This document shows positions 548 through 10,620 of a stretch of 10,840 nucleotides of DNA, in pieces. The notes under the pieces are model-generated. The model was not told where the DNA came from and did no database searches. It saw only the letters and a program-made list of their open reading frames with translations. The stretch comes from Bdellovibrionales bacterium (lineage in GTDB: Bacteria > Bdellovibrionota > Bdellovibrionia > Bdellovibrionales > JAMPXM01): assembly GCA_043739185.1 (NCBI GenBank), contig JAYUEN010000438.1, positions 1-10,840 of the forward strand, given 5' to 3'. Position numbers and translations under genes: made by a program. Position 1 is the stretch's first letter. Each line of letters opens with the position of its first letter.

Positions 548-1393
548 TTATAAAATGAAAGTTGCAAGTCTTACTAATTCGCGTCCAGCTCTATTAGAGA
601 GTACGTCTTTTCTGTAGGCGACAAAAATTTTGTCTTCAAAGATTGGTAGCTTTGAATCATAGGGAACGAGATCGGCTCCGTCAGCTTTAGCTACTCTTTC
701 TGGCAGAATGCCAATTCCTTGGCCCGCCAAAGTGAGAGTTCGAATTAGTTCTAGACTATTGGTATTGATGAGCTTCCAATCCTTGAATTCTTTTGCATGT
801 GTTTTGCCAAGAATATCTTGAATTTGAGCAAGATTGACGTCGGCGAATATTTTCTTGGGAATACTGCCTGCGCCTTTTGCGCGCCAAAACAAAACTCGGT
901 CGTCTCCCATTTTTCTTAAAACTAAATCGGGGTGCCTGACAGGATTGACAACAAAGCCGAGATCGATCTCAAAGGAGACAACCCGCTCAGTTATTTTTCT
1001 TGAAAAATCATGAATCAAATCAATTTCTATTCCGGGTGCATTTTTTTGTAAGCTTTCAAAAAAGCGAGGCAGGGTATATGCGCCCACACTTTGATGGCAT
1101 CCCACTTTGAAATTCGCCTGAAGGGTGTCGAGCGATTGATCTAGATCATGATGAAGCTCATTCCAAGAGTCGAGAAGACTATGCGATTTTTTATAAAATA
1201 AGCTTCCTTGCTCAGTAGGAACGACACCTTGCTTTGTACGATGAAAAAGCTTTACTCCAAGTTTGTCTTCTAAGCGCTGCAGACTTAGTGTGAGGGTGGG
1301 CTGGGTAACGCCAAGTCGGATTGCGGCCTTTGAAACATGGCGCATTTGATAGACTTCAATAAAGTATTCGATTTCATTAGGAGATGCTAACAT
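548..1393 (-). CDS. LysR-family transcriptional regulator
   Basis: 281 aa. N-terminal LysR HTH (VSKAAIRLGVTQPTLTLSLQRLEDKLGVKLFHRTKQGVVPTEQG) and C-terminal effector domain (...FEIDLGF...AGQGIGILP). Confidence 0.96.
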   Translation of the reverse strand: MLASPNEIEYFIEVYQMRHVSKAAIRLGVTQPTLTLSLQRLEDKLGVKLFHRTKQGVVPTEQGSLFYKKSHSLLDSWNELHHDLDQSLDTLQANFKVGCHQSVGAYTLPRFFESLQKNAPGIEIDLIHDFSRKITERVVSFEIDLGFVVNPVRHPDLVLRKMGDDRVLFWRAKGAGSIPKKIFADVNLAQIQDILGKTHAKEFKDWKLINTNSLELIRTLTLAGQGIGILPERVAKADGADLVPYDSKLPIFEDKIFVAYRKDVLSNRAGRELVRLATFIL

Positions 1394-1415
1394 GCCATTT
1401 AGTTTATCATAGAGT

Positions 1416-1435
1416 GATAAAAAATGCTTATGATA
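1416..1435. promoter_or_regulatory. Putative LysR autoregulatory binding site (ATAA-N7-TTAT, T-N11-A)
   Basis: ATAA(1417-1420)-aaaatgc-TTAT(1428-1431), 23-42 bp upstream of the lysR start. Its reverse complement TATCATAAGCATTTTTTATC matches 7349-7368 at 17/20. An extra half-site TTATCATA lies at 1404-1411. Confidence 0.75.
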
Positions 1436-1458
1436 TTATTTAATAATTGTACTAAAAA

Positions 1459-2631
1459 CTATATTAGACTTCTTTCATGAATATTCGCGGTTAAAACCTC
1501 TGACCGCTTTTGTAATGTCTGAAAAGTTTGCCATAGCAATGCAAAAAACATGAGCCCAGCGGCTAAATACGGCAGACTTTGAATTTCGTAACCACCTGCT
1601 AAGGCCATACCACCAAGTGCCGTACCGGCGACACTCCCAAGGCTGACAGCAGAACTATTGAGTGCGACGAGAGTGGCGTGCTGATTGGACCCAAGTTCAA
1701 GCAGATTGTATTGCTGAGGGGTTACCGTCGCCCAGCTCAGCGCGCCCCAAATAAAAAAGGGCAAGAGTCCAAAAGTCGGCAAAGCTTGAAGTGTTGGGAT
1801 TGCAATTAGCATCATTAAGTGAAGTACGAGAATGATTGTCATCAATAATTTCGGTTTGCCTATGCGATCTACCAAATAGCCAATAGCGATGCTTCCAATC
1901 AGTCCGCCGATACTCCAAAGAGAGAGAGCCGCATCGGAAGAAGTCACAGTTTTAGAAAGTATCGGTGCAATAAAAGCGTAAAGACCAAGACTGCTTGTGG
2001 CGGTCAAAAGAGTAATACCGATAATTCCGAATACGCGACGATTATTCAAAAAGCGAAATTGCTCCTTTAACGAAGGCGGAGTTTCAATTCGGAGAGATTG
2101 CATGCGAATAGCGGCACCCAAAAGAGCAATAGCCGACAAAGCTAAAATGAGAATGATCGGAGCACGCCAACTCATTCTGTCAGCCAGCCAGAGCCCGAAT
2201 GGAACTCCGACAACGGCACCAGCACAATTTGAACCCCAAATCAAACTAAGCGCCCGACCTCGAGCAAGAGGTGCAACTTCTTGAGTTGCTGAAGCAACTG
2301 CAATCGGAAGAAACAATCCGGCTCCAAGTCCTGCAATGCCTCGACTAACAAGGTAGATCATCCAATGAGTTGACAGAAGTGTGAGCAAATTGCCAGCGAT
2401 GAAAACCAGTAGAGCCCAAATCAAAACTTGGCGCGTCGGTTTTCTTGCGAGTAAGAAAATGCAAATGGGAACCGACATTACGAATGTGATGCCATAGACT
2501 GAACAAGCTTGGGCAGCTACTGCAATGCTGATGTGTAGTGAAGCGCTGATGCTCGGTAAGAGTCCAGCGAAAACATAGTCATCGCAACCGAGTGCAAACA
2601 TTCCGGCGGCTAAGTAGAAAAGCCTTTTCAT
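1459..2631 (-). CDS. MFS efflux transporter (DHA1/PbuE-NepI-like), probable product export or self-resistance
   Basis: 390 aa with about 12 hydrophobic segments. Family-like motifs: FALGCDDYVFAGLLPSIS, RGIAGLGAG, RGRALS, GAVVGVPFG...SWR, GYLVDRIG. Start overlaps the ATP-grasp stop (ATGA, 2628-2631). Confidence 0.93.
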   Translation of the reverse strand: MKRLFYLAAGMFALGCDDYVFAGLLPSISASLHISIAVAAQACSVYGITFVMSVPICIFLLARKPTRQVLIWALLVFIAGNLLTLLSTHWMIYLVSRGIAGLGAGLFLPIAVASATQEVAPLARGRALSLIWGSNCAGAVVGVPFGLWLADRMSWRAPIILILALSAIALLGAAIRMQSLRIETPPSLKEQFRFLNNRRVFGIIGITLLTATSSLGLYAFIAPILSKTVTSSDAALSLWSIGGLIGSIAIGYLVDRIGKPKLLMTIILVLHLMMLIAIPTLQALPTFGLLPFFIWGALSWATVTPQQYNLLELGSNQHATLVALNSSAVSLGSVAGTALGGMALAGGYEIQSLPYLAAGLMFFALLWQTFQTLQKRSEVLTANIHERSLI

Positions 2632-3854
2632 CGAAACTCCAACTTTGACTCCATTGAGCGAATTTTTTTATAATCTAAAAAAATCGAGTCGCGGTCGCCA
2701 GCCAGTCCAATGATTCCGATGCTTGTGAGATAGTCCACGGTTTGGGGTACGAGATCGCCATTTTTAATCCAAATGTGTTTACTGAGAAGTGTTGGCAACT
2801 GTGAAATGCCGTCCAGAACTTCAACATTCAAAGCCGTCCCTTGATTCAAGGCTTTTAAAAAAACTGGTACAACTGTTTTTCTTAATATATATTCTTTGGT
2901 GATGACATCACCATCCGCATAGAGCTCAACTAGTTTGTCGACCTGACTGCTGCCGGTGGCTTCACGAGCAAATCCAACAACTGGTCCGCCAATCATTCTC
3001 GAGCTAGTCTCGATAAATCGTGGACCTTTTGCTGTCAGCATAATTTCAGTATGAGCAGCGCCGAAGCGAATCCCCAAGGCATTCAATGTTTTTTGAGTAT
3101 ATTCAAACAAATCACCGAGAGTTTCTTTGTTAAAAGAAACAAATTCGACATGATCAAAAACCGTTCTGCGTTCACCAGAGTTGGTTTTATTGTATTTGAT
3201 TAAGTGAGTGAGATAGTGTTTGCCATGGGCACTTACGGTGCCGACTGCAAACTCAACACCCACGGCTAGCTCTTGGATCACGACGCTTTCACTTCTTTTG
3301 CCTGATATGACCGAGGGTTCAGTCAAAATCTGATTGAAGGCTTTTCTCCAATTGCCTTTGGCCGGAATGTGAAAAACATTTTCGCTACCTGAAGAACGAG
3401 GTGGCTTGATGATCAGCGGAGAGTCCTGCAAATCGTTTTCTTTGAGCCAGGCTTCGGCTTCACTCTCTAAAGATGAGTGCATTGTTTTGAGTGCTGGAAC
3501 TTGAGCTTCTTCAAGAGTTTTTTGCATAAGAGCTTTATGTGATCGATGCAGTGATGTTTTTGGATCATTGGCAAACTCTGGAGTCAGAACGGCAGTGAGA
3601 TGTTCAGCTAAAGAGATGCCTTCTTCAGTCCCTGGAATGATTGCAATCGGATTGTATTTTTTTATCAGCTTTAATAGATCGGGCTGCTCAGGAATAATTT
3701 CGATGAAGTCTGAAGCTTGAATTTTTGATCCAAACTCAGGCCACTCTTTATTGATTAAAGTAATTGCGATAGCAGGAATATCTCGAGCCCTAAAAGCCGG
3801 AGCCAGTTCTATGCCTGATGAGAGTGGGTCAACAATGACAACGGGTCTATTCAC
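2628..3854 (-). CDS. ATP-grasp ligase (L-amino-acid ligase/BacD/DdaF-like amide-bond-forming enzyme)
   Basis: 408 aa, GTG start. ATP-grasp motifs: K-x2-M (HKALMQ), IIKPPRSSGSENV, VIQE, E-F-x-V, HTEI, FIETSSRMIGG. Overlaps the upstream monooxygenase by 8 nt. Confidence 0.88.
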   Translation of the reverse strand: MNRPVVIVDPLSSGIELAPAFRARDIPAIAITLINKEWPEFGSKIQASDFIEIIPEQPDLLKLIKKYNPIAIIPGTEEGISLAEHLTAVLTPEFANDPKTSLHRSHKALMQKTLEEAQVPALKTMHSSLESEAEAWLKENDLQDSPLIIKPPRSSGSENVFHIPAKGNWRKAFNQILTEPSVISGKRSESVVIQELAVGVEFAVGTVSAHGKHYLTHLIKYNKTNSGERRTVFDHVEFVSFNKETLGDLFEYTQKTLNALGIRFGAAHTEIMLTAKGPRFIETSSRMIGGPVVGFAREATGSSQVDKLVELYADGDVITKEYILRKTVVPVFLKALNQGTALNVEVLDGISQLPTLLSKHIWIKNGDLVPQTVDYLTSIGIIGLAGDRDSIFLDYKKIRSMESKLEFR

Positions 3855-5355
3855 TTCTTGTGCTCCATAGTTGAGGCATCAGCTTATTTAAAGAAGAGGG
3901 GGCGTCCACATCGTCTAGAGAAATGAAAGCTTCGATATAAGAATCGGGCCTTACTAAAATGCCTAGGTCTTTATAAGGAGAATTTTCTGACCAGTTGGCC
4001 TCGTCGCACTTTTTTGGATGAATCTGAATGAGCTTTACATATTCTGGTAAGTTGAGGCCTCCAAGCCAGTCACTTTTCAGGTCACCAAATATAAGTAAGC
4101 TATATTTAGTATAATCCAGCATTGAGTAAAGCCGCGTTTTGGTACTACCCAGACGAGTTTCTTGATTGACTTCTACGTCAAACAATCTCGAGCCGGGCAG
4201 GCCTTCATCGCGGTAGCGAATTCCCATCCCGGTTATATTTCCTGATCGTTTTTGAACTATCTTCAGGTAGTCCAGAGCGTGGGTTCCAGTTTGTGAAAAT
4301 TTTGTCGAGCGCACAAGTTCTCCTGAAGTTTCAATGACACTTTGTGCAACTGGCTTACGCTCGCTTTCATAGCTTTTTAAAAGTTCGGCAGAAGCGCCAA
4401 ATTTCAAAACCATGTTCAGCTTCCACATCAGATTGAAAGCATCTGCTAAACCTGTGTTTAGGCCTTGTCCGCCATTGACTGAATGAATATGACAAGCGTC
4501 TCCGGCAAGAAAAATGCGATCTTGAGCGAAAAACTTTTCAGCCACCGACTCTTTAACTGAAAATCGAGAATACCAGATCACTTCTTTAAAGCTTAATGAG
4601 TGAGGTTGCATAGCACGATTTATTTTGGCAAGGGCTTCTTCAAAGCTGAAATCTTTGGCGTCCATTCTAACGTAAAATCGATCGATATTTCCTTCTCGGG
4701 GTATCCAAGCGACGTCTGAAGTTTCTGCTTGAAAAACGATGATTTCAGGAACTTTTTGAAAATCCGTTTCGATCACTCCGTCGATCACTGCCCATACGAT
4801 TTGAGGACGCTTGATTTCAAAAGCTATTTTAAAATGATCGCGAACAAAAGATTGGGATCCATCAGCGCCAATAACATAACTTGATTGAACCTTTTCTCCA
4901 CTTGAGAGCCTTGTGAAACATTTATTTTCAATGACTTCAATATCTTTTACTGTTGTGGATCGCTTAACCTCAGATCCGATTTTCTTAAGCCTTAAGTCTA
5001 AAAGATTTTCGAGGTAGGATTGTCCAATCATTAAGAAATGTTTGTGAAAGCATCCCTCAAGCTCTTCCCACCAAGAAGATTGACGTGAAAGAAATTTTCC
5101 GTCGGCCCAAATTGAACTTGTATTACAGGCTTTACCCAAAGGATAAAGCTCTTCGAATGAATCGACCAATTCTAAGAGTTGCAGGGTTCGTGCATTGAGA
5201 GCATCAGCTCTGCCGACTTCTAGTGGCCCAGTGGATTTATCTAGAACAAGAGTAGTCAAACCACAGAGTTTGCCAAGATAGGCGCACATGAGTCCGACCG
5301 GACCAGCGCCAACAATAACAATATCGACGATTTCAGTACTCAATTGATTTCTCAT
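3847..5355 (-). CDS. FAD-dependent aromatic monooxygenase (class A, PheA/TfdB phenol-hydroxylase-like)
   Basis: 502 aa. GxGxxG (VGAGPVGL), DG motif (IGADGSQS), GD motif (FLAGDACHIHSVNGGQGLNTG), YESER, and C-terminal LVRPD. ATGA overlap with pvcB at 5352-5355. Confidence 0.93.
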   Translation of the reverse strand: MRNQLSTEIVDIVIVGAGPVGLMCAYLGKLCGLTTLVLDKSTGPLEVGRADALNARTLQLLELVDSFEELYPLGKACNTSSIWADGKFLSRQSSWWEELEGCFHKHFLMIGQSYLENLLDLRLKKIGSEVKRSTTVKDIEVIENKCFTRLSSGEKVQSSYVIGADGSQSFVRDHFKIAFEIKRPQIVWAVIDGVIETDFQKVPEIIVFQAETSDVAWIPREGNIDRFYVRMDAKDFSFEEALAKINRAMQPHSLSFKEVIWYSRFSVKESVAEKFFAQDRIFLAGDACHIHSVNGGQGLNTGLADAFNLMWKLNMVLKFGASAELLKSYESERKPVAQSVIETSGELVRSTKFSQTGTHALDYLKIVQKRSGNITGMGIRYRDEGLPGSRLFDVEVNQETRLGSTKTRLYSMLDYTKYSLLIFGDLKSDWLGGLNLPEYVKLIQIHPKKCDEANWSENSPYKDLGILVRPDSYIEAFISLDDVDAPSSLNKLMPQLWSTRSE

Positions 5356-6200
5356 TTGTGCGACACGAGACGTGGATTGTCTAGAGGTGGATTGCTGAGT
5401 ACATGCACTCGGCGAAGGTGCCTCGGTGCTTTAGTTTCAAAAGCTTCGCGTCCATGTAATAGTGAAAAATTGTCTGCAACTACAATATCTCCTTCTTGCC
5501 ATTCGTGCGCATAGAAATTATTTGGTGAATACAGCGCTTCTCTGAGAGTTCGATGAGATTCATTGAGCTCTTCGTCGTTTAAACCAGTAAATTCAAGAAT
5601 GGGGGGATTGACGAAATGTCCAAATCCCTCTTTGGGAGGTTCATTGTATCGAATCACTGAAAAGTCCCGGTGTGGATGGGAATCAATAATGGGAGAAAGT
5701 GTTTTGCTATCATAATACTCCATTTTTCGTTGATAGCTGCCGGTCATTTTATTCCAGAGTGTTTTTGAATTCTCAGGAGCTGTTTCGAGTGCGAGGACAG
5801 TATTTGAAAAAGTGGTTCGACCGCCCTGGCCTGAAAGAGGTGCTTTCACACAATTAAAAATTTGAAACTCGGGAACTTGTTGGCGATACATTCCATCCCA
5901 ATGTAGGGGAACATAATTATTGTCAAAAATATGATCTTCTGGATTGTTGTGCTCTACTAATTCGAGGACTTTACCAAATGGCCATAAGCTAATTTCGCCC
6001 CACCTTTCACAGTAGTTAGCGAATTCCTCAGCTCCGTTAAGTGCGCGAAATCCTCTTAAAACAATGAGATGTTCGCTCCAAACCTTTTCACGTAGGGCTT
6101 CAATGTCGAGATTGTTGACGTCATCATTTGGGCGATTGGCTTCTAAAAGTAATCCAAATGGTTTGATTGCTTTAATATTAGCTTCAGCTTTAGGCTTCAC
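5352..6200 (-). CDS. pvcB: PvcB/IsnB-type Fe(II)/2-oxoglutarate oxygenase (TauD/TfdA family)
   Basis: 282 aa, GTG start preceded by GGAGG. Facial triad H100-x-D102 (PLHWDGMY) plus distal His (LLHGR), GGRTTF and HEWQEGDIVVADN. Lies immediately downstream of pvcA with an 11-nt overlap. Confidence 0.92.
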   Translation of the reverse strand: MKPKAEANIKAIKPFGLLLEANRPNDDVNNLDIEALREKVWSEHLIVLRGFRALNGAEEFANYCERWGEISLWPFGKVLELVEHNNPEDHIFDNNYVPLHWDGMYRQQVPEFQIFNCVKAPLSGQGGRTTFSNTVLALETAPENSKTLWNKMTGSYQRKMEYYDSKTLSPIIDSHPHRDFSVIRYNEPPKEGFGHFVNPPILEFTGLNDEELNESHRTLREALYSPNNFYAHEWQEGDIVVADNFSLLHGREAFETKAPRHLRRVHVLSNPPLDNPRLVSHK

Positions 6201-7275
6201 AATCGCCTCCTTGGAGTTTCAAAAGGCCTTTATTGTCTTTTAAAATGAAATGACTTGGGCGTCCGAAACGAGTGACAAGGTGGCCACCAAGTATTTCAGC
6301 TTGCGAACGCTTCAAAAGTATAAAGCGCCCGTCAACTTGGACAGCGACTCCATGCCAAGGAGTCTGCCAATTATCAGGCTCAATAAGGCGAATGCCCAAT
6401 TTTTTAGAACCACAACTTTGCGGATGAATTGAAAGTCGAACAGCATCAGGAAATTGCTTTTCAACTAGTTCGCCCCAAGCCTTACTTCTTTGAATGACTG
6501 CATAGGAGCGAAGCCGACATTCTTTCTGCAAGGCCGTACGGCTTTGTTTTTGCCCTGGATAAAGAGCGTCCTCGACAAGAAAGCGCGTAATGCCGCAGTA
6601 AAGTCTATGAGTTTCTTTATCTTCCACTGAGCAAGCCTCAGCTTTTCCTCTATGGACCGAGGCTTTAAGAACATCTATGCTTTCACCAAATTGCTGCATC
6701 AGCTGAGTTCGCATTTCATCAAAGCTGAGTCCTTCAAATAATTCTTCAAGATTGAAAGTGGAGATTGATGCTAAACCCAGTCCCAAGATCATTTTAGAGA
6801 GCTCTTCTTGATAATTGGTGACGTCTATATCACGCATGCCGACGACGTCACTAAAAACTCTACCATCCGAGCACAAGATTATTTTCGCACCAGGTGAATA
6901 GTAGCGCCTCACTCGATCGCAAAGTTGTTGCAGAAATTCAAGGGCACATCTTTCGGCCATATCAGGTAATGGGCCAAGCACTTTGGCGGTATTCGGAGAC
7001 TTACCAGGAAATGCAGGTAAAACAAATAGGACCGGTAAGTTTTGAGTAACCGCAGAGATGATCCTTGAAAGATGCGGCTCTAGGCACTTCTGGCAAGAGG
7101 CCGCCATGCAGGCTGATTCTGAATCGGCTAAGCGTCGAAACTGCATGACGTCTACTAAGATGTTTTTGGCAATAGTCTCAGGCCGTGTCGTCATCAGAGA
7201 GAATTTGGTCTCTAGACGCTGCCTATTGTCGCTGTAGTCTGTCTCATGGTTTAATGAAGCTTCTGTAAATGTCAT
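6190..7275 (-). CDS. pvcA: Isonitrile (isocyanide) synthase, DIT1/PvcA/IsnA family
   Basis: 361 aa. Diagnostic motifs LPAFPGKSPN..KVLG.LPD.AE, CSDGRVFSD, RLSIHPQ...KLGI, TPWHG. SD-like AAGGGG 9 nt upstream of the ATG. Confidence 0.95.
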   Translation of the reverse strand: MTFTEASLNHETDYSDNRQRLETKFSLMTTRPETIAKNILVDVMQFRRLADSESACMAASCQKCLEPHLSRIISAVTQNLPVLFVLPAFPGKSPNTAKVLGPLPDMAERCALEFLQQLCDRVRRYYSPGAKIILCSDGRVFSDVVGMRDIDVTNYQEELSKMILGLGLASISTFNLEELFEGLSFDEMRTQLMQQFGESIDVLKASVHRGKAEACSVEDKETHRLYCGITRFLVEDALYPGQKQSRTALQKECRLRSYAVIQRSKAWGELVEKQFPDAVRLSIHPQSCGSKKLGIRLIEPDNWQTPWHGVAVQVDGRFILLKRSQAEILGGHLVTRFGRPSHFILKDNKGLLKLQGGDCEA

Positions 7276-7300
7276 TTTAGTTTACCCCTTACGTGGCCTC

Positions 7301-7329
7301 AATATAGAAGCAAACCCATTATTAAATAA
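7301..7329 (-). promoter_or_regulatory. Putative sigma70 promoter of the pvcA operon (good -10, poor -35)
   Basis: Minus-strand TATATT (7306-7301) resembles TATAAT. The hexamer 17 bp upstream is TTATTT (7329-7324), a weak -35 typical of activator-dependent promoters. Not experimentally mapped. Confidence 0.45.
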
Positions 7330-7348
7330 AATAAATAACGAATGCTAT

Positions 7349-7371
7349 TATCATAAGTGTTTTTTATGATA
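7349..7371. promoter_or_regulatory. Putative LysR regulatory binding site (perfect inverted repeat with T-N11-A core)
   Basis: TATCATAA-gtgtttt-TTATGATA: 8-bp perfect inverted arms, 7-bp spacer, T7354-N11-A7366. Lies in the divergent pvcA/dioxygenase intergenic region. Confidence 0.8.
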
Positions 7372-7502
7372 TTAAATTCGTAGCATAAAATGCTCCGATT
7401 GTATTGGGGCTGTGATCGCCTAACTAATCATTAATTATGACTATGATGAATGGTCTGGTATTTTATTTTATCGATAAGCTTTTTTAGATTAGGCTTTTAG
7501 GA

Positions 7503-7862
7503 ATGAAATACTTTCATGTCCATATTTACTTTGATGCAAAAGATCTCGAGCTTGCCTACTCTTTGGGAGAGCAAGCCCATTTGACTAATTTCTTTAACAA
7601 TATCAAAATTTTTGAAAAGCCAATAGGGCCGCATCCAAAAGGGATGATTGAAATGCACTTTATCGAATCATCATTTGCTACAATATTAAATTGGGTAAAG
7701 CTTCACCGCAAAGAATTTTCTGTCTTGATTCATGAAGATACTGGAGACGATATAAAAGATCACACAGACGGGATTCTGTGGTTAGGAAAGCAGTTGCCAA
7801 TTGATTTTTCTTTTTTCGAATTGATTCAATTGCACCCTGAGCTTCGAATTCATCCAATATAG
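7503..7862 (+). CDS. DOPA 4,5-dioxygenase family protein (small Amanita DODA-like extradiol ring-cleavage dioxygenase)
   Basis: 119 aa. Family pattern HxHxYF (YFHVHIYF), IGPHP, SVLIH.DTG....DH....LWLG..LP. Confidence 0.88.
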   Translation: MKYFHVHIYFDAKDLELAYSLGEQAHLTNFFNNIKIFEKPIGPHPKGMIEMHFIESSFATILNWVKLHRKEFSVLIHEDTGDDIKDHTDGILWLGKQLPIDFSFFELIQLHPELRIHPI

Positions 7863-7950: not shown

Positions 7951-8310
7951 CTAGTCGGCTTTAATACAAGAATTTGAAACGGCTCCGTTGGAATCAAAAG
8001 CTATGAGGCTATTTTGAACACCCAGGACATGTAGTATTTCTTCTTCATATTTTACGTACTGTCCTGAGGTTTTGTCTCGCTTTTCAGTAACTTGAATATC
8101 AACCGTGGCAATTCCCTTGTTGTTGTGAGTAATTCCTTGGCTGTAATACGCATACTCCACGTAGGGGGCTTTGATTCCGGGACTGATCTCAATTGTCTTA
8201 ATTGTGATTTTTGATTTCGTGAATGAGTCGACTATACAGTTGTAGCTTCCTTCTTGAAATGCGTGAGCAGAAAGAGAAAAAAATAATGTTGTTAGAATTA
8301 AAACTTTCAT
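7951..8310 (-). CDS. Hypothetical secreted protein
   Basis: 119 aa. Sec signal peptide MKVLILTTLFFSLSAHA with an A-x-A cleavage site, GGAG SD upstream, and two Cys near the termini of the mature chain. Confidence 0.8.
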   Translation of the reverse strand: MKVLILTTLFFSLSAHAFQEGSYNCIVDSFTKSKITIKTIEISPGIKAPYVEYAYYSQGITHNNKGIATVDIQVTEKRDKTSGQYVKYEEEILHVLGVQNSLIAFDSNGAVSNSCIKAD

Positions 8311-8486: not shown

Positions 8487-9245
8487 TTGAAGAATTATTT
8501 TGCTGCATTAATGAAATTTCTAGTTTCGATTGGCGTAACTCATATTCTAAATTTGTAGCCCGTCTTCGCTGAAACTTTGGGTAATCAAATAGTACATAAT
8601 TTTACAGCGGCAAAAAAGTTGGCAATTGCAATTCACAAGAATCACCGAGTGACCATTTACTGTCCTTGCAAATATGAGGGCAAAGTTGTCGACATAAAAA
8701 GCTGTGGCTATCAGATAGCGAGCGATGCCAAACGTGCTACAAGGCTTGAATGGGAGCATGTAGTGCCCGCAGAGGCATTCGGTCAAGCATTCTCTGAATG
8801 GCGAGAAGGTGCTTTGCAGTGTCGTAAAAAGAAAACGGGCAAAGCTTTCAAGGGACGAAAGTGCGCTGAGACAAATTCGGAGTTTGCCCATATGGAAGCC
8901 GATCTTTACAATCTATGGCCTGTCATAGGTGAGCTCAATGCTTTGCGATCAAACTATTCAATGGCTCAGATTTCTGCTGAAGCGAAGACTTTCGGTGAAT
9001 GCAAAGCCAAAATCGCTGGTCGCAAGTTCGAGCCCATGGACAGCGACAAAGGCATAGTGGCTCGCGATTATATGTATATGGATTTAAATTATCCGGGCCG
9101 GGGTATTATTAGCAGTAAAAATAAGAAATTATTTGAAGCTTGGGATGCGCAATATCCGGTGAGTGATTGGGAGTGCGCACGCGCAAAAATGATTCAAAAG
9201 ATTCAAGCTAATAAAAATCAGATATTAGCTGAGCGTTGCAAGTAA
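8487..9245 (+). CDS. endA: Endonuclease I (EndA/Dns/Vvn family), N-terminal signal region interrupted by an in-frame TAG at 8556-8558 (pseudogene or sequencing error)
   Basis: 8577..9245 carries TIYCPC, RLEWEHVVPA, MEADLYNLWPVIGELNALRSNY, FEP...KGIVAR.Y.YM...Y and W...YPVSDWE..R. In-frame upstream TTG8487 (SD AAGGAG 8474-8479) and ATG8511 read MKNYFAALMKFLVSIGVTHILNL*PVFA-ETLGNQ. Confidence 0.88.
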
Positions 9246-9401
9246 GATATTCGATAATTTAAGTGCAACTCTAGATTTTGAGTTACTATAGAATGCCCAT
9301 TTTGAGCTAGGCCTTGGTAATTTTGTGAATGCTAAGTCTACTTATTGAGGATTTGCGCAATTCTTGTTACTGTGCCCACTCATAAACAGGGAGTAGTAAT
9401 A

Positions 9402-9956
9402 GTGAAAAAGCTCATTTTTCTTTTAGTGTTTTCTTGTCTTGGTCTTAGTATTCAGTCTTGTACCTCTGACAGCGGTGGGAGTCCTGCTTCGGAAGTCACC
9501 TCTGGCACCGGGACCGTGAATATCAAAGGTAGTTTGAATCAAGTTCGAAATTTCGGAGCAGACGATCAAAAGCTCACGGGTGTTTATTGTATTTCAGAGC
9601 AAGCTATTTCATTTGCCCAAGTCAGTCTAAACGTAAAAGGTAAGTCGAAATCAAGATCAGATGTTTCTGAGGCTATGACAATTAGCTTTCCCGCGATGAA
9701 AGGCTTTCCGCAGGGAAGAGTGGATTTCACTATCGGCAACTCAGTTTCTTATTTAATCAATGAAAAGACCTATCAAAACTCAAGCAGCGAGTGCGGCGGC
9801 ACATTTTCAAAAAATGGCAAACTCTATCACGGAGAAGTGACGTGTAAAGCGATGGCCCGAGGTGATAGTGCGGCTTTCGAAAGTCCCTCAAAAGATAGCA
9901 CTTCAGACATCATTGATTTGAATGCAAGTTTTGATTGTAGCATCAGAGAAATATAA
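9402..9956 (+). CDS. Hypothetical lipoprotein
   Basis: GTG9402 is preferred over TTG9345 because GGGAG (9389-9393) precedes it. It gives MKKLIFLLVFSCLGLSIQS-C with a lipobox-like IQSC, a Ser/Gly/Thr tether and four further Cys. Confidence 0.78.
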   Translation: MKKLIFLLVFSCLGLSIQSCTSDSGGSPASEVTSGTGTVNIKGSLNQVRNFGADDQKLTGVYCISEQAISFAQVSLNVKGKSKSRSDVSEAMTISFPAMKGFPQGRVDFTIGNSVSYLINEKTYQNSSSECGGTFSKNGKLYHGEVTCKAMARGDSAAFESPSKDSTSDIIDLNASFDCSIREI

Positions 9957-10299: not shown

Positions 10300-10620
10300 G
10301 CCTGACTACAATTTCCCAGTGCAACTTTTTTCCATCATGACTTCATAAGGTGTTCTCCAGTCAAGGATTTTCATTGGTCGATTGTTGATCTCAAATTCAA
10401 TCAATTCCAGCTCCCGATTGGTGAGGTTTGTCAGGTCCGTTTTCTTTGGATAGTACTGACGAAGGATACCGATTCTGTTTTCATTCGTGCCCCTTTGATA
10501 GCTTGAGTAGGGATCGCAGAAGTACACCTTGATCTTGGTTCTTCGTTCATAGCTTTTATGATCCGAGAACTCCTGACCCCGATCATTGGTCATCGTTCTT
10601 TTTGGAAGATCCCTTAACCC
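10300..10620 (-). mobile_element. IS30-family insertion sequence remnant (3' end with right terminal inverted repeat)
   Basis: Transposase C-terminus plus IR-like GCCTGACTACAATTTCCCAGTGCAAC (10300-10325), which overlaps the stop codon and has the AGTGCAAC inner motif typical of IS30-family ends. The upstream boundary is approximate. Confidence 0.85.
10306..10620 (-). pseudogene. Truncated IS30-family DDE transposase
   Basis: LRDLPKRTMTNDRGQEF (second D), YFCDPYSSYQRGTNEN (E), LRQYYPK and NNRPMKILDWRTP. The frame is closed upstream by TGA at 10642-10644, and no HTH or first catalytic Asp is present in frame. Confidence 0.88.

Follow-up and report, generated by a model that had tools for sequence, protein, structure and literature searches.

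A Legionella-type isonitrile operon with a divergent DOPA dioxygenase-family gene in a Bdellovibrionales genome

Gene content and layout of the locus

The window analysed here is a whole contig of 10,840 nucleotides (JAYUEN010000438.1, our C438) from a Bdellovibrionales genome. Five minus-strand genes run in the order pvcA, pvcB, class A flavin monooxygenase (FMO), ATP-grasp ligase and MFS exporter, with successive overlaps of 11, 4, 8 and 4 nt. A minus-strand lysR follows the MFS gene after a 65-nt gap, and a DOPA dioxygenase-family gene lies divergently on the other side. An ORF check placed all seven ORFs where a preliminary description of this DNA had put them. Its view of the overlapping genes as a single operon stands, as does its account of the two flanking genes, whose families Pfam confirms.

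The first two genes encode a PvcA/IsnA isonitrile synthase (6190..7275, 361 aa; DIT1_PvcA, E 8e-77) and a PvcB/IsnB Fe/2OG desaturase (5352..6200, 282 aa; TauD, E 1e-46), and these Pfam matches support the earlier assignment to isonitrile biosynthesis. They are followed by the FMO (3847..5355, 502 aa; FAD_binding_3, E 5e-60; PRK07190), the ligase (2628..3854, 408 aa; ATP-grasp_4, PF13535, E 4e-12; PRK07206) and the exporter (1459..2631, 390 aa; MFS_1, E 8e-34; Cmx/CmrA-like, below cut-off). The LysR regulator (548..1393, 281 aa) has both the HTH and substrate domains of its family in Pfam, and the plus-strand dioxygenase (7503..7862, 119 aa) matches DOPA_dioxygen (PF08883, E 5e-28). Pfam and NCBIfam scans of the 12 window proteins found no PvcC/D, glycosyltransferase or NRPS.

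Two sequence elements suggest how the cluster may be controlled. A palindrome, ATCATA-N9-TATGAT, lies upstream of pvcA (7350..7370) and is conserved in relatives; it is likely a LysR site. A similar putative LysR-type box, ATCATA-N9-TATCAC, lies upstream of lysR (1414..1434, minus strand) and likely serves autoregulation. Neither predicted promoters (13 versus 13.2) nor predicted terminators (6 versus 8.0) were more frequent than in shuffled sequence. The GC content of the cluster (42.5%) is close to that of the genome (41.8%), so composition gives no sign of recent transfer.

A counterpart of the Legionella cluster

The window cluster is another copy of a cluster that has been catalogued, and partly characterised, in Legionella. 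L. pneumophila Philadelphia-1 lpg0173-0178 shares all six of its LysR, PvcA, PvcB, PRK07190 FMO, MFS and PF13535 ligase genes with the window. Contrary to the first impression, the tailoring set is not unusual, since the same six genes recur with MFS and ligase exchanged. This cluster is reportedly the isocyanide/acyl-histidine cluster of Torring 2017, whose subject was probably lpg0174-0178.

In the supplementary tables of PMC5126622, a run of successive L. pneumophila entries covers LysR (YP_094227), PvcA (228), PvcB (229), an FAD-binding protein (230, lpg0176), a chloramphenicol-resistance/MFS protein (231), lpg0178 (232) and an O-methyltransferase (233); for lpg0174-0179 the paper records no more than an antiSMASH cf_putative cluster. 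The main text of that paper places a P450 always alongside Legionella isnAB, whereas its tables put the FAD-binding protein at lpg0176; we followed the tables and two loci of our own set, L112 and L114.

Sequence comparison ties the individual genes together. The window FMO is the orthologue of lpg0176 and is 71% identical to the corresponding L. norrlandica protein (WP_035887242, our P0223). The ligase, orthologous to lpg0178, is 69–71% identical to L. pneumophila proteins over 405 aa and 70% identical to the L. norrlandica protein in the lpg0178 orthologue row (WP_035887238, P0076). The L. pneumophila-like locus L112 has the order pvcB-FMO-MFS-ligase, with a ligase 97% identical to L. pneumophila P0104; the window matches it at 69% for FMO, 67% for PvcB (C-terminal half) and 41% for the MFS, the counterpart of lpg0177. 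The window LysR is 37% identical to that of L114. The window thus has the pvcA-pvcB-FMO tandem, the lpg0178-type ligase, the MFS and the LysR of the Legionella type, in a different order.

Several features distinguish it from lpg0173-lpg0179. The ligase precedes the MFS gene, whereas in Legionella it follows; lysR, upstream in Legionella, here lies downstream and is co-directional; the divergent slot holds a DOPA dioxygenase; there is no O-methyltransferase; and the host is a Bdellovibrionales genome.

The preliminary description also held that the cluster was neither a paerucumarin nor a rhabduscin pathway, and the lack of PvcC/D and glycosyltransferase genes bears this out. Like P. aeruginosa pvcABCD, the window has PvcA and PvcB homologues with a ring hydroxylase after pvcB, but here this is a single-component FMO in place of PvcC/D. 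With the rhabduscin/byelyankacin systems (IsnA, PIsnB, glycosyltransferase) it shares decarboxylating-type PvcB markers, which predict a common aglycone, 4-(2-isocyanovinyl)phenol, but it has an FMO and a ligase where those have a glycosyltransferase.

A predicted route to a catechol vinyl isonitrile

PvcA falls within PF05141, and its best PDB match is P. aeruginosa PvcA (3E59, E 1e-75). Its score against the NCBIfam L-tyrosine isonitrile synthase model NF045653 lies below the cut-off (301 versus 600 bits). It likely converts L-tyrosine, the presumed substrate, to the corresponding isonitrile. PvcA also carries a subfamily motif, C-x4-C-x2-C-x3-H (C56, C61, C64, H68), which overlaps a less confident stretch of its predicted structure (mean pLDDT 87.3, but 66 for residues 51–60).

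PvcB has the iron triad H100/D102/H249 and an equivalent, R264, of PIsnB Arg265. PMC9467999 associates K/R107 and N/H188 with decarboxylating desaturases and Leu and Cys with isocyanoacrylate-forming enzymes. Aligned to these PIsnB positions, the window enzyme has the decarboxylating pair, R106 and N186, rather than Leu and Cys. Arg occupies the first marker in all 35 relatives that cover the site, so that the Leu of PvcB-type enzymes occurs in 0 of 35; Arg with Asn is found in 29 of 37, and Arg with Cys in five. The pocket, W-D-G-M-Y, agrees with tyrosine-type PIsnB. Given Arg106 and Asn186, PvcB is predicted to decarboxylate tyrosine isonitrile to 4-(2-isocyanovinyl)phenol, leaving no carboxylate to ligate, and the acrylate required for coumarin closure in paerucumarin is not predicted. 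Heterologous isnAB yields the (E) form of this compound, according to PMC13647977.

The isocyanoacrylate product first proposed for this locus conflicts with these markers. In the underlying scheme PvcB would leave the carboxylate in place, and hydroxylation of the isocyanoacrylate by the FMO, followed by amide formation by the ligase, would give one exported chelator. In its favour, PvcB is overall nearer to P. aeruginosa PvcB (310 bits; best PDB match 3EAT, E 1.5e-91) than to PIsnB (259 bits), the five genes are translationally coupled, and single marker swaps left the product unchanged in PMC9467999, making the markers correlative. Against it stand both marker residues and the FMO pocket, where Phe107 and Ile205 replace His135 and Lys247 of 3-hydroxybenzoate hydroxylase, presumably carboxylate-binding residues; the ligase, moreover, is usually not adjacent in related loci (see below). 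We regard this scheme as highly improbable.

We favour instead a phenolic substrate for the FMO. The enzyme passes the NCBIfam PRK07190 model (865 versus a cut-off of 530), and among proteins of solved structure it is closest to VibO, phenol 2-monooxygenase and 3-hydroxybenzoate hydroxylase. Its GxGxxG, DG and GD FAD motifs are invariant among 44 sequences, as are D51, R220 and Y228; their aligned counterparts in phenol hydroxylase are D54, R281 and Y289, which we take to be the Asp/Arg/Tyr phenol site. These features are those of the phenol ortho-hydroxylase subfamily of class A FMOs. In one relative, G268, an HpaB-type 3-hydroxylase occupies the FMO slot. Because the FMO keeps the phenol-hydroxylase residues and has this HpaB-type replacement, it likely ortho-hydroxylates 4-(2-isocyanovinyl)phenol to a catechol vinyl isonitrile, and the ring hydroxylation suggested earlier is plausible.

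Could the FMO catalyse something else? It might attack the ipso/para position with a side-chain shift to a hydroquinone, an erbstatin-like outcome, or it might perform cyclisation, dimerisation or isonitrile detoxification for self-protection. The fold leaves the reaction unfixed, since the top match of the model, the Diels-Alderase TedJ (Z 41.3, rmsd 2.9, 444 aligned), ties with 2-hydroxybiphenyl 3-monooxygenase (Z 40.7, rmsd 3.0, 473 aligned), and its neighbours extend to other non-hydroxylating enzymes such as VibO (oxepinone formation). In 44 of 44 sequences, Val293 also takes the place of the proline in H-S-P-K, a phenol-hydroxylase motif. Set against the invariant phenol-site and FAD residues and the HpaB exchange, we find such a departure from ortho-hydroxylation improbable. 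The literature searched, which excluded the primary Legionella study, yielded no product for a PRK07190 monooxygenase and no isonitrile work in Bdellovibrionota.

The ligase, the dioxygenase and the spread of the cassette

The ligase passes PRK07206 (481 versus a cut-off of 302), and K150, E195, H268, E270, E282 and R286 are invariant in 18 of 18 sequences. It resembles L-amino acid ligases (E 2.6e-39 to DdaF, 5e-42 to PDB 30VH), but scores only 135 bits against the DdaF cut-off of 840. A review, PMC11631085, credits a Pfam 13535 ATP-grasp enzyme in L. pneumophila with forming fatty-acyl histidines, which makes the proposed amide link to the isonitrile doubtful. Gene neighbourhoods point the same way: the ligase is adjacent to the cluster in 6 of the 36 loci with room to show one and absent from that position in the other 30, in genome G291 it is encoded away from the cluster, and 25 of 33 FMO genomes yielded no ligase orthologue above 60%. 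Yet among 401 sampled genomes of the phylum Bdellovibrionota, all nine ligase homologues of at least 51% sit in genomes with the window's pvcAB type, which may reflect a real link to the isonitrile.

Taken together, this Legionella-type operon probably makes a catechol vinyl isonitrile plus separate N-acyl amino acids. The ligase would likely make the latter, acyl-histidines for example; the MFS would export, LysR would act through the ATCATA-N9-TATGAT box, and the product may be defensive or serve in signalling. The observations behind this reading are the genes present, their orthologues and residues, the statistics of gene order and the upstream palindrome; PvcA/PvcB chemistry, marker residues and, second-hand, the Legionella ligase product are taken from the literature. 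The Bdellovibrionales copy lets the FMO step and the true ligase substrate be tested without a pathogen.

The dioxygenase raises another possibility, a joined product. The catechol from the FMO would be ring-opened by the DOPA dioxygenase and the acid so formed amidated by the ligase, or else the acid from PvcA would reach the ligase ahead of PvcB; Legionella acyl-histidines would then be side products. The nine ligase homologues are consistent with this, and in G268 pvcAB is accompanied by HpaB, a ring-opening dioxygenase of the LigB type, an MFS gene and the ligase, HpaB and LigB being by analogy counterparts of the window FMO and DOPA dioxygenase. Among 38 related loci, a dioxygenase lies beside pvcA in four, from three host families. 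However, all four belong to one PvcA subclade in a quick tree, and a single recruitment may explain them. Only one of the 38, L012, has both the dioxygenase and the ligase as neighbours, PF08883 occurs in 101 of 401 genomes but is mostly not near pvc genes, and no DOPA-type dioxygenase is among the genes listed for the L. pneumophila cluster. A joined product is therefore unlikely, though a ring-cleaved one would, if real, add a new isonitrile scaffold from predatory bacteria. We consider it unlikely that the true product of this cluster family has been overlooked and is, in this variant, a new betalain-like isonitrile amide formed by the ring-opening route, with the pvcAB-FMO core perhaps serving prey attack or anti-protist defence and the Cys3-His PvcA acting as a metal-binding synthase; were that so, the motif would set this PvcA subfamily apart from the solved isonitrile synthases. 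On balance we treat the window dioxygenase as an accessory, putative pathway member.

The cassette is modular, and its distribution across Bdellovibrionota is patchy. pvcA-pvcB-FMO is the core across the 38 loci, and in 37 of them no more than 39 nt separate the FMO gene from pvcB, whereas MFS is adjacent in two. The core occurs in 33 of the 401 sampled genomes (~8%) and in Burkholderia stagnalis too, and FMO homologues are present in Uabimicrobium and Obscuribacterales. Because the PvcA tree is quick and carries no clade test, we claim neither donor nor transfer direction. The window's own genome has a second pvcAB cluster, on contig C180, with a P450 and a glycosyltransferase that belongs to that cluster.

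Operon anatomy and the Legionella counterpart

Five minus-strand genes overlap successively by 11, 4, 8 and 4 nt: pvcA (7275-6190), pvcB (6200-5352), a class A flavin monooxygenase (FMO, 5355-3847), an ATP-grasp ligase (3854-2628) and an MFS transporter (2631-1459). lysR (1393-548, minus strand) follows after 65 nt, and a DOPA dioxygenase gene lies divergently (7503-7862, plus strand). All seven open reading frames stand where the preliminary description placed them, and Pfam upholds every family; FMO and ligase also pass PRK07190 and PRK07206, and PvcA scores under the cut-off of the tyrosine isonitrile synthase equivalog. The window, which spans the entire 10,840-nt contig C438, further holds an endonuclease I homologue (8577-9245, plus strand) and, close to the contig end, an IS30 transposase remnant (10306-10593, minus strand); the open reading frames at 1-477, 7951-8310 and 9345-9956 have no Pfam or NCBIfam match.

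What was observed stands, and its interpretation holds only in part: the tailoring set thought unusual is found in L. pneumophila, and the PvcB markers are of the decarboxylating type. The gene set is already known from Legionella, and the window cluster is a further member of the Legionella-type isonitrile cluster. The window ligase is 69-71% identical to L. pneumophila proteins. Supplementary tables of PMC5126622 list consecutive Philadelphia 1 proteins as LysR, PvcA, PvcB, FAD-binding lpg0176, a chloramphenicol-resistance/MFS protein, lpg0178 and an O-methyltransferase, and that source gives lpg0174-0179 as a single antiSMASH cluster. For L. norrlandica, its lpg0176 row gives P0223, 71% identical to the window FMO, and its lpg0178 row P0076, 70% identical to the window ligase. 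The MFS gene precedes the ligase gene in the Philadelphia 1 cluster tabulated there, whereas the window has the reverse order. Two further loci read pvcB-FMO-MFS-ligase (L112, whose ligase shares 97% identity with P0104 of L. pneumophila) and lysR(divergent)-pvcA-pvcB-FMO-MFS-ligase (L114). Passages in three reviews describe Legionella pvcAB as iron-regulated and biofilm-induced (PMC5835138, PMC11004079, PMC11705809).

A three-gene core and its predicted regulation

We mapped 40 loci, 8 found via PvcA and 32 via the FMO family, and removed 2 duplicates. FMO is present in 38/38, a count shaped by the 32 loci chosen through it; the fair reverse test is the PvcA-chosen set, where it occurs in 8/8. 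pvcB is found in 37/38, always within 39 nt of FMO (the single miss is a contig end), and pvcA in 34/38 (three contig ends, one deletion). Adjoining lysR occurs in 17/38, MFS in 2/38, DOPA dioxygenase in 4/38, and an adjoining ligase in 6 of the 36 loci with at least 1.5 kb downstream. Across a phylum sample of 401 genomes, 63 carry the PvcA family, 33 the window-type FMO and 101 PF08883; ligase at 63% identity or more occurs in 8, all among the 33, and one more homologue (51%) in G268. The window's host falls in one order with a genome labelled Bdellovibrionales (L003, identical to L057 and G441). PvcA is present in 6/61 close relatives and 0/3 same-genus genomes (88-100% complete), and host families are intermixed in a quick PvcA tree. 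From these locus counts, genome counts and the mixed tree, the core is pvcA-pvcB-FMO and the remaining genes are accessory and mobile.

Several loci vary individually. A Burkholderia stagnalis 3.2-Mb replicon (L079; NZ_CP156686.1, about 780800-784100) carries the core only, and a seventh ligase-bearing locus lies on a split contig in G274. Two loci appear broken: L048, without pvcA and with shortened lysR and pvcB matches, and L001 (10810-12277), where a frameshift splits FMO.

Upstream of pvcA lies the palindrome ATCATA-N9-TATGAT (7350-7370), with a variant at 1414-1434 and only two exact sites elsewhere in the genome. It recurs upstream of pvcA, with at most 2 mismatches, in 23/31 loci against 3.7 expected in shuffles, a partly circular count, since the window and 13 relatives supplied the pattern; 3 of 34 pvcA loci were left out for short upstream sequence. 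The LysR-type consensus is T-N11-A. Because the palindrome has this form, it is a putative LysR binding site.

Predicted PvcB and FMO chemistry

Decarboxylating enzymes carry K/R107 and N/H188, and isocyanoacrylate formers Leu and Cys, according to PMC9467999, which also cautions that single swaps left the product unchanged. Aligned to 7TCL and 3EAT, window PvcB shows R106 and N186 at these two positions and retains both its iron triad, H100/D102/H249, and R264; its W-D-G-M-Y pocket is that of the tyrosine-type enzyme. As R106 and N186 match the published markers, window PvcB is predicted to remove the carboxylate. Against this, it scores higher overall to P. aeruginosa PvcB (310 bits) than to the tyrosine-type PIsnB (259 bits). 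Among 37 distinct relatives, 29 have R+N (also seen in L079, L110, L114 and L116), 5 R+C, 1 R+Q and two, truncated, N; none has the Leu marker. The isocyanoacrylate joined by an amide bond, proposed in the preliminary description, therefore loses its footing, and we consider such an amide very improbable. The mixed R+C markers occur in L060, L062 and L064; in these and L074 a SnoaL-like protein directly follows FMO, followed in turn by MFS in L062 and by a similar open reading frame in L064.

By profile, the closest solved relatives of FMO are VibO, phenol 2-monooxygenase and 3-hydroxybenzoate hydroxylase. Fold matches of its predicted model (pLDDT 88.7) fall in the same enzyme class: TedJ (Z 41.3, rmsd 2.9, 444 aligned), 2-hydroxybiphenyl 3-monooxygenase (Z 40.7, rmsd 3.0, 473 aligned) and VibO (Z 38.4, rmsd 2.7, 482 aligned). 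Phenol hydroxylase binds phenol through D54, R281 and Y289, and 3-hydroxybenzoate hydroxylase binds carboxylate through His135 and Lys247. FMO D51, R220 and Y228 align with the former, and F107 and I205 occupy the positions of the latter; all five are invariant in 44/44 FMO sequences. With phenol-site residues kept and F107 and I205 at the carboxylate-binding positions, a neutral phenol substrate would fit. Downstream of a 69%-identical pvcB, G268 has an HpaB-type 3-hydroxylase and a LigB dioxygenase that replace FMO and DOPA dioxygenase (one example only), and the O-methyltransferase beside the Philadelphia 1 cluster fits a catechol. On these grounds our committed reading is that FMO would perform ortho-hydroxylation; some other reaction is unlikely. 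The FMO step and the G268 variant most deserve further work.

That variant, L110 (5143-15564 of C1), is larger, with pvcA, pvcB, HpaB hydroxylase, asparagine-synthase-like amidotransferase, zinc dehydrogenase, LigB dioxygenase, SDR, MFS and ligase; it adjoins an integrase and looks more novel than the window cluster.

Ligase and products

Catalytic-type ligase residues do not vary among 18 sequences, one of them L. pneumophila P0104, and the nearest solved structure is L-amino acid ligase 30VH. G291 carries a 68% ligase orthologue (L111, 7633-8907 of C42) in an 11-kb stretch free of pvc genes, its pvcAB-FMO cluster being on a different contig. We favour an independent ligase product, because the ligase is missing from most clusters and lies apart in G291. 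What speaks most strongly for a joined product, formed by ring cleavage or early ligation, is that ligase homologues are confined to genomes with window-type pvcAB (9/9); we consider such a product rather unlikely.

The Torring study reportedly traced two separate compound groups, a known tyrosine-derived isocyanide and N-acyl-histidines, to a single orphan cluster. That cluster is probably lpg0174-0178. A passage of PMC11631085, citing Torring, has an L. pneumophila Pfam 13535 ATP-grasp enzyme condense fatty acids via acyl-phosphate to acyl-histidine, and one in PMC6677021 attributes C6, C8 and C10 histidine derivatives to that work. A statement in PMC13647977 describes tetrazine labelling of the (E)-4-(2-isocyanovinyl)phenol that a host made when isnA and isnB were expressed in it; going by reference order, we infer its source to be Torring. 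On balance, the window cluster probably makes 4-(2-isocyanovinyl)phenol, likely hydroxylated, and separate acyl amino acids.

PvcA residues 56-68 form a C-x4-C-x2-C-x3-H motif, with all three Cys in 32/35 aligned rows, that is absent in the solved PvcA structures 3E59 and 9DH4/9DHM; it is a possible candidate zinc site.

The same genome carries a second isonitrile cluster, lysR-pvcA-pvcB-P450-glycosyltransferase (C180, 37084-42173), with 38% (PvcA), 34% (PvcB) and 43% (LysR) identity to the window's. Its PvcB reads HWDGAFY and is without the Asn marker, suggesting a different substrate; cross-talk between the two clusters could occur.
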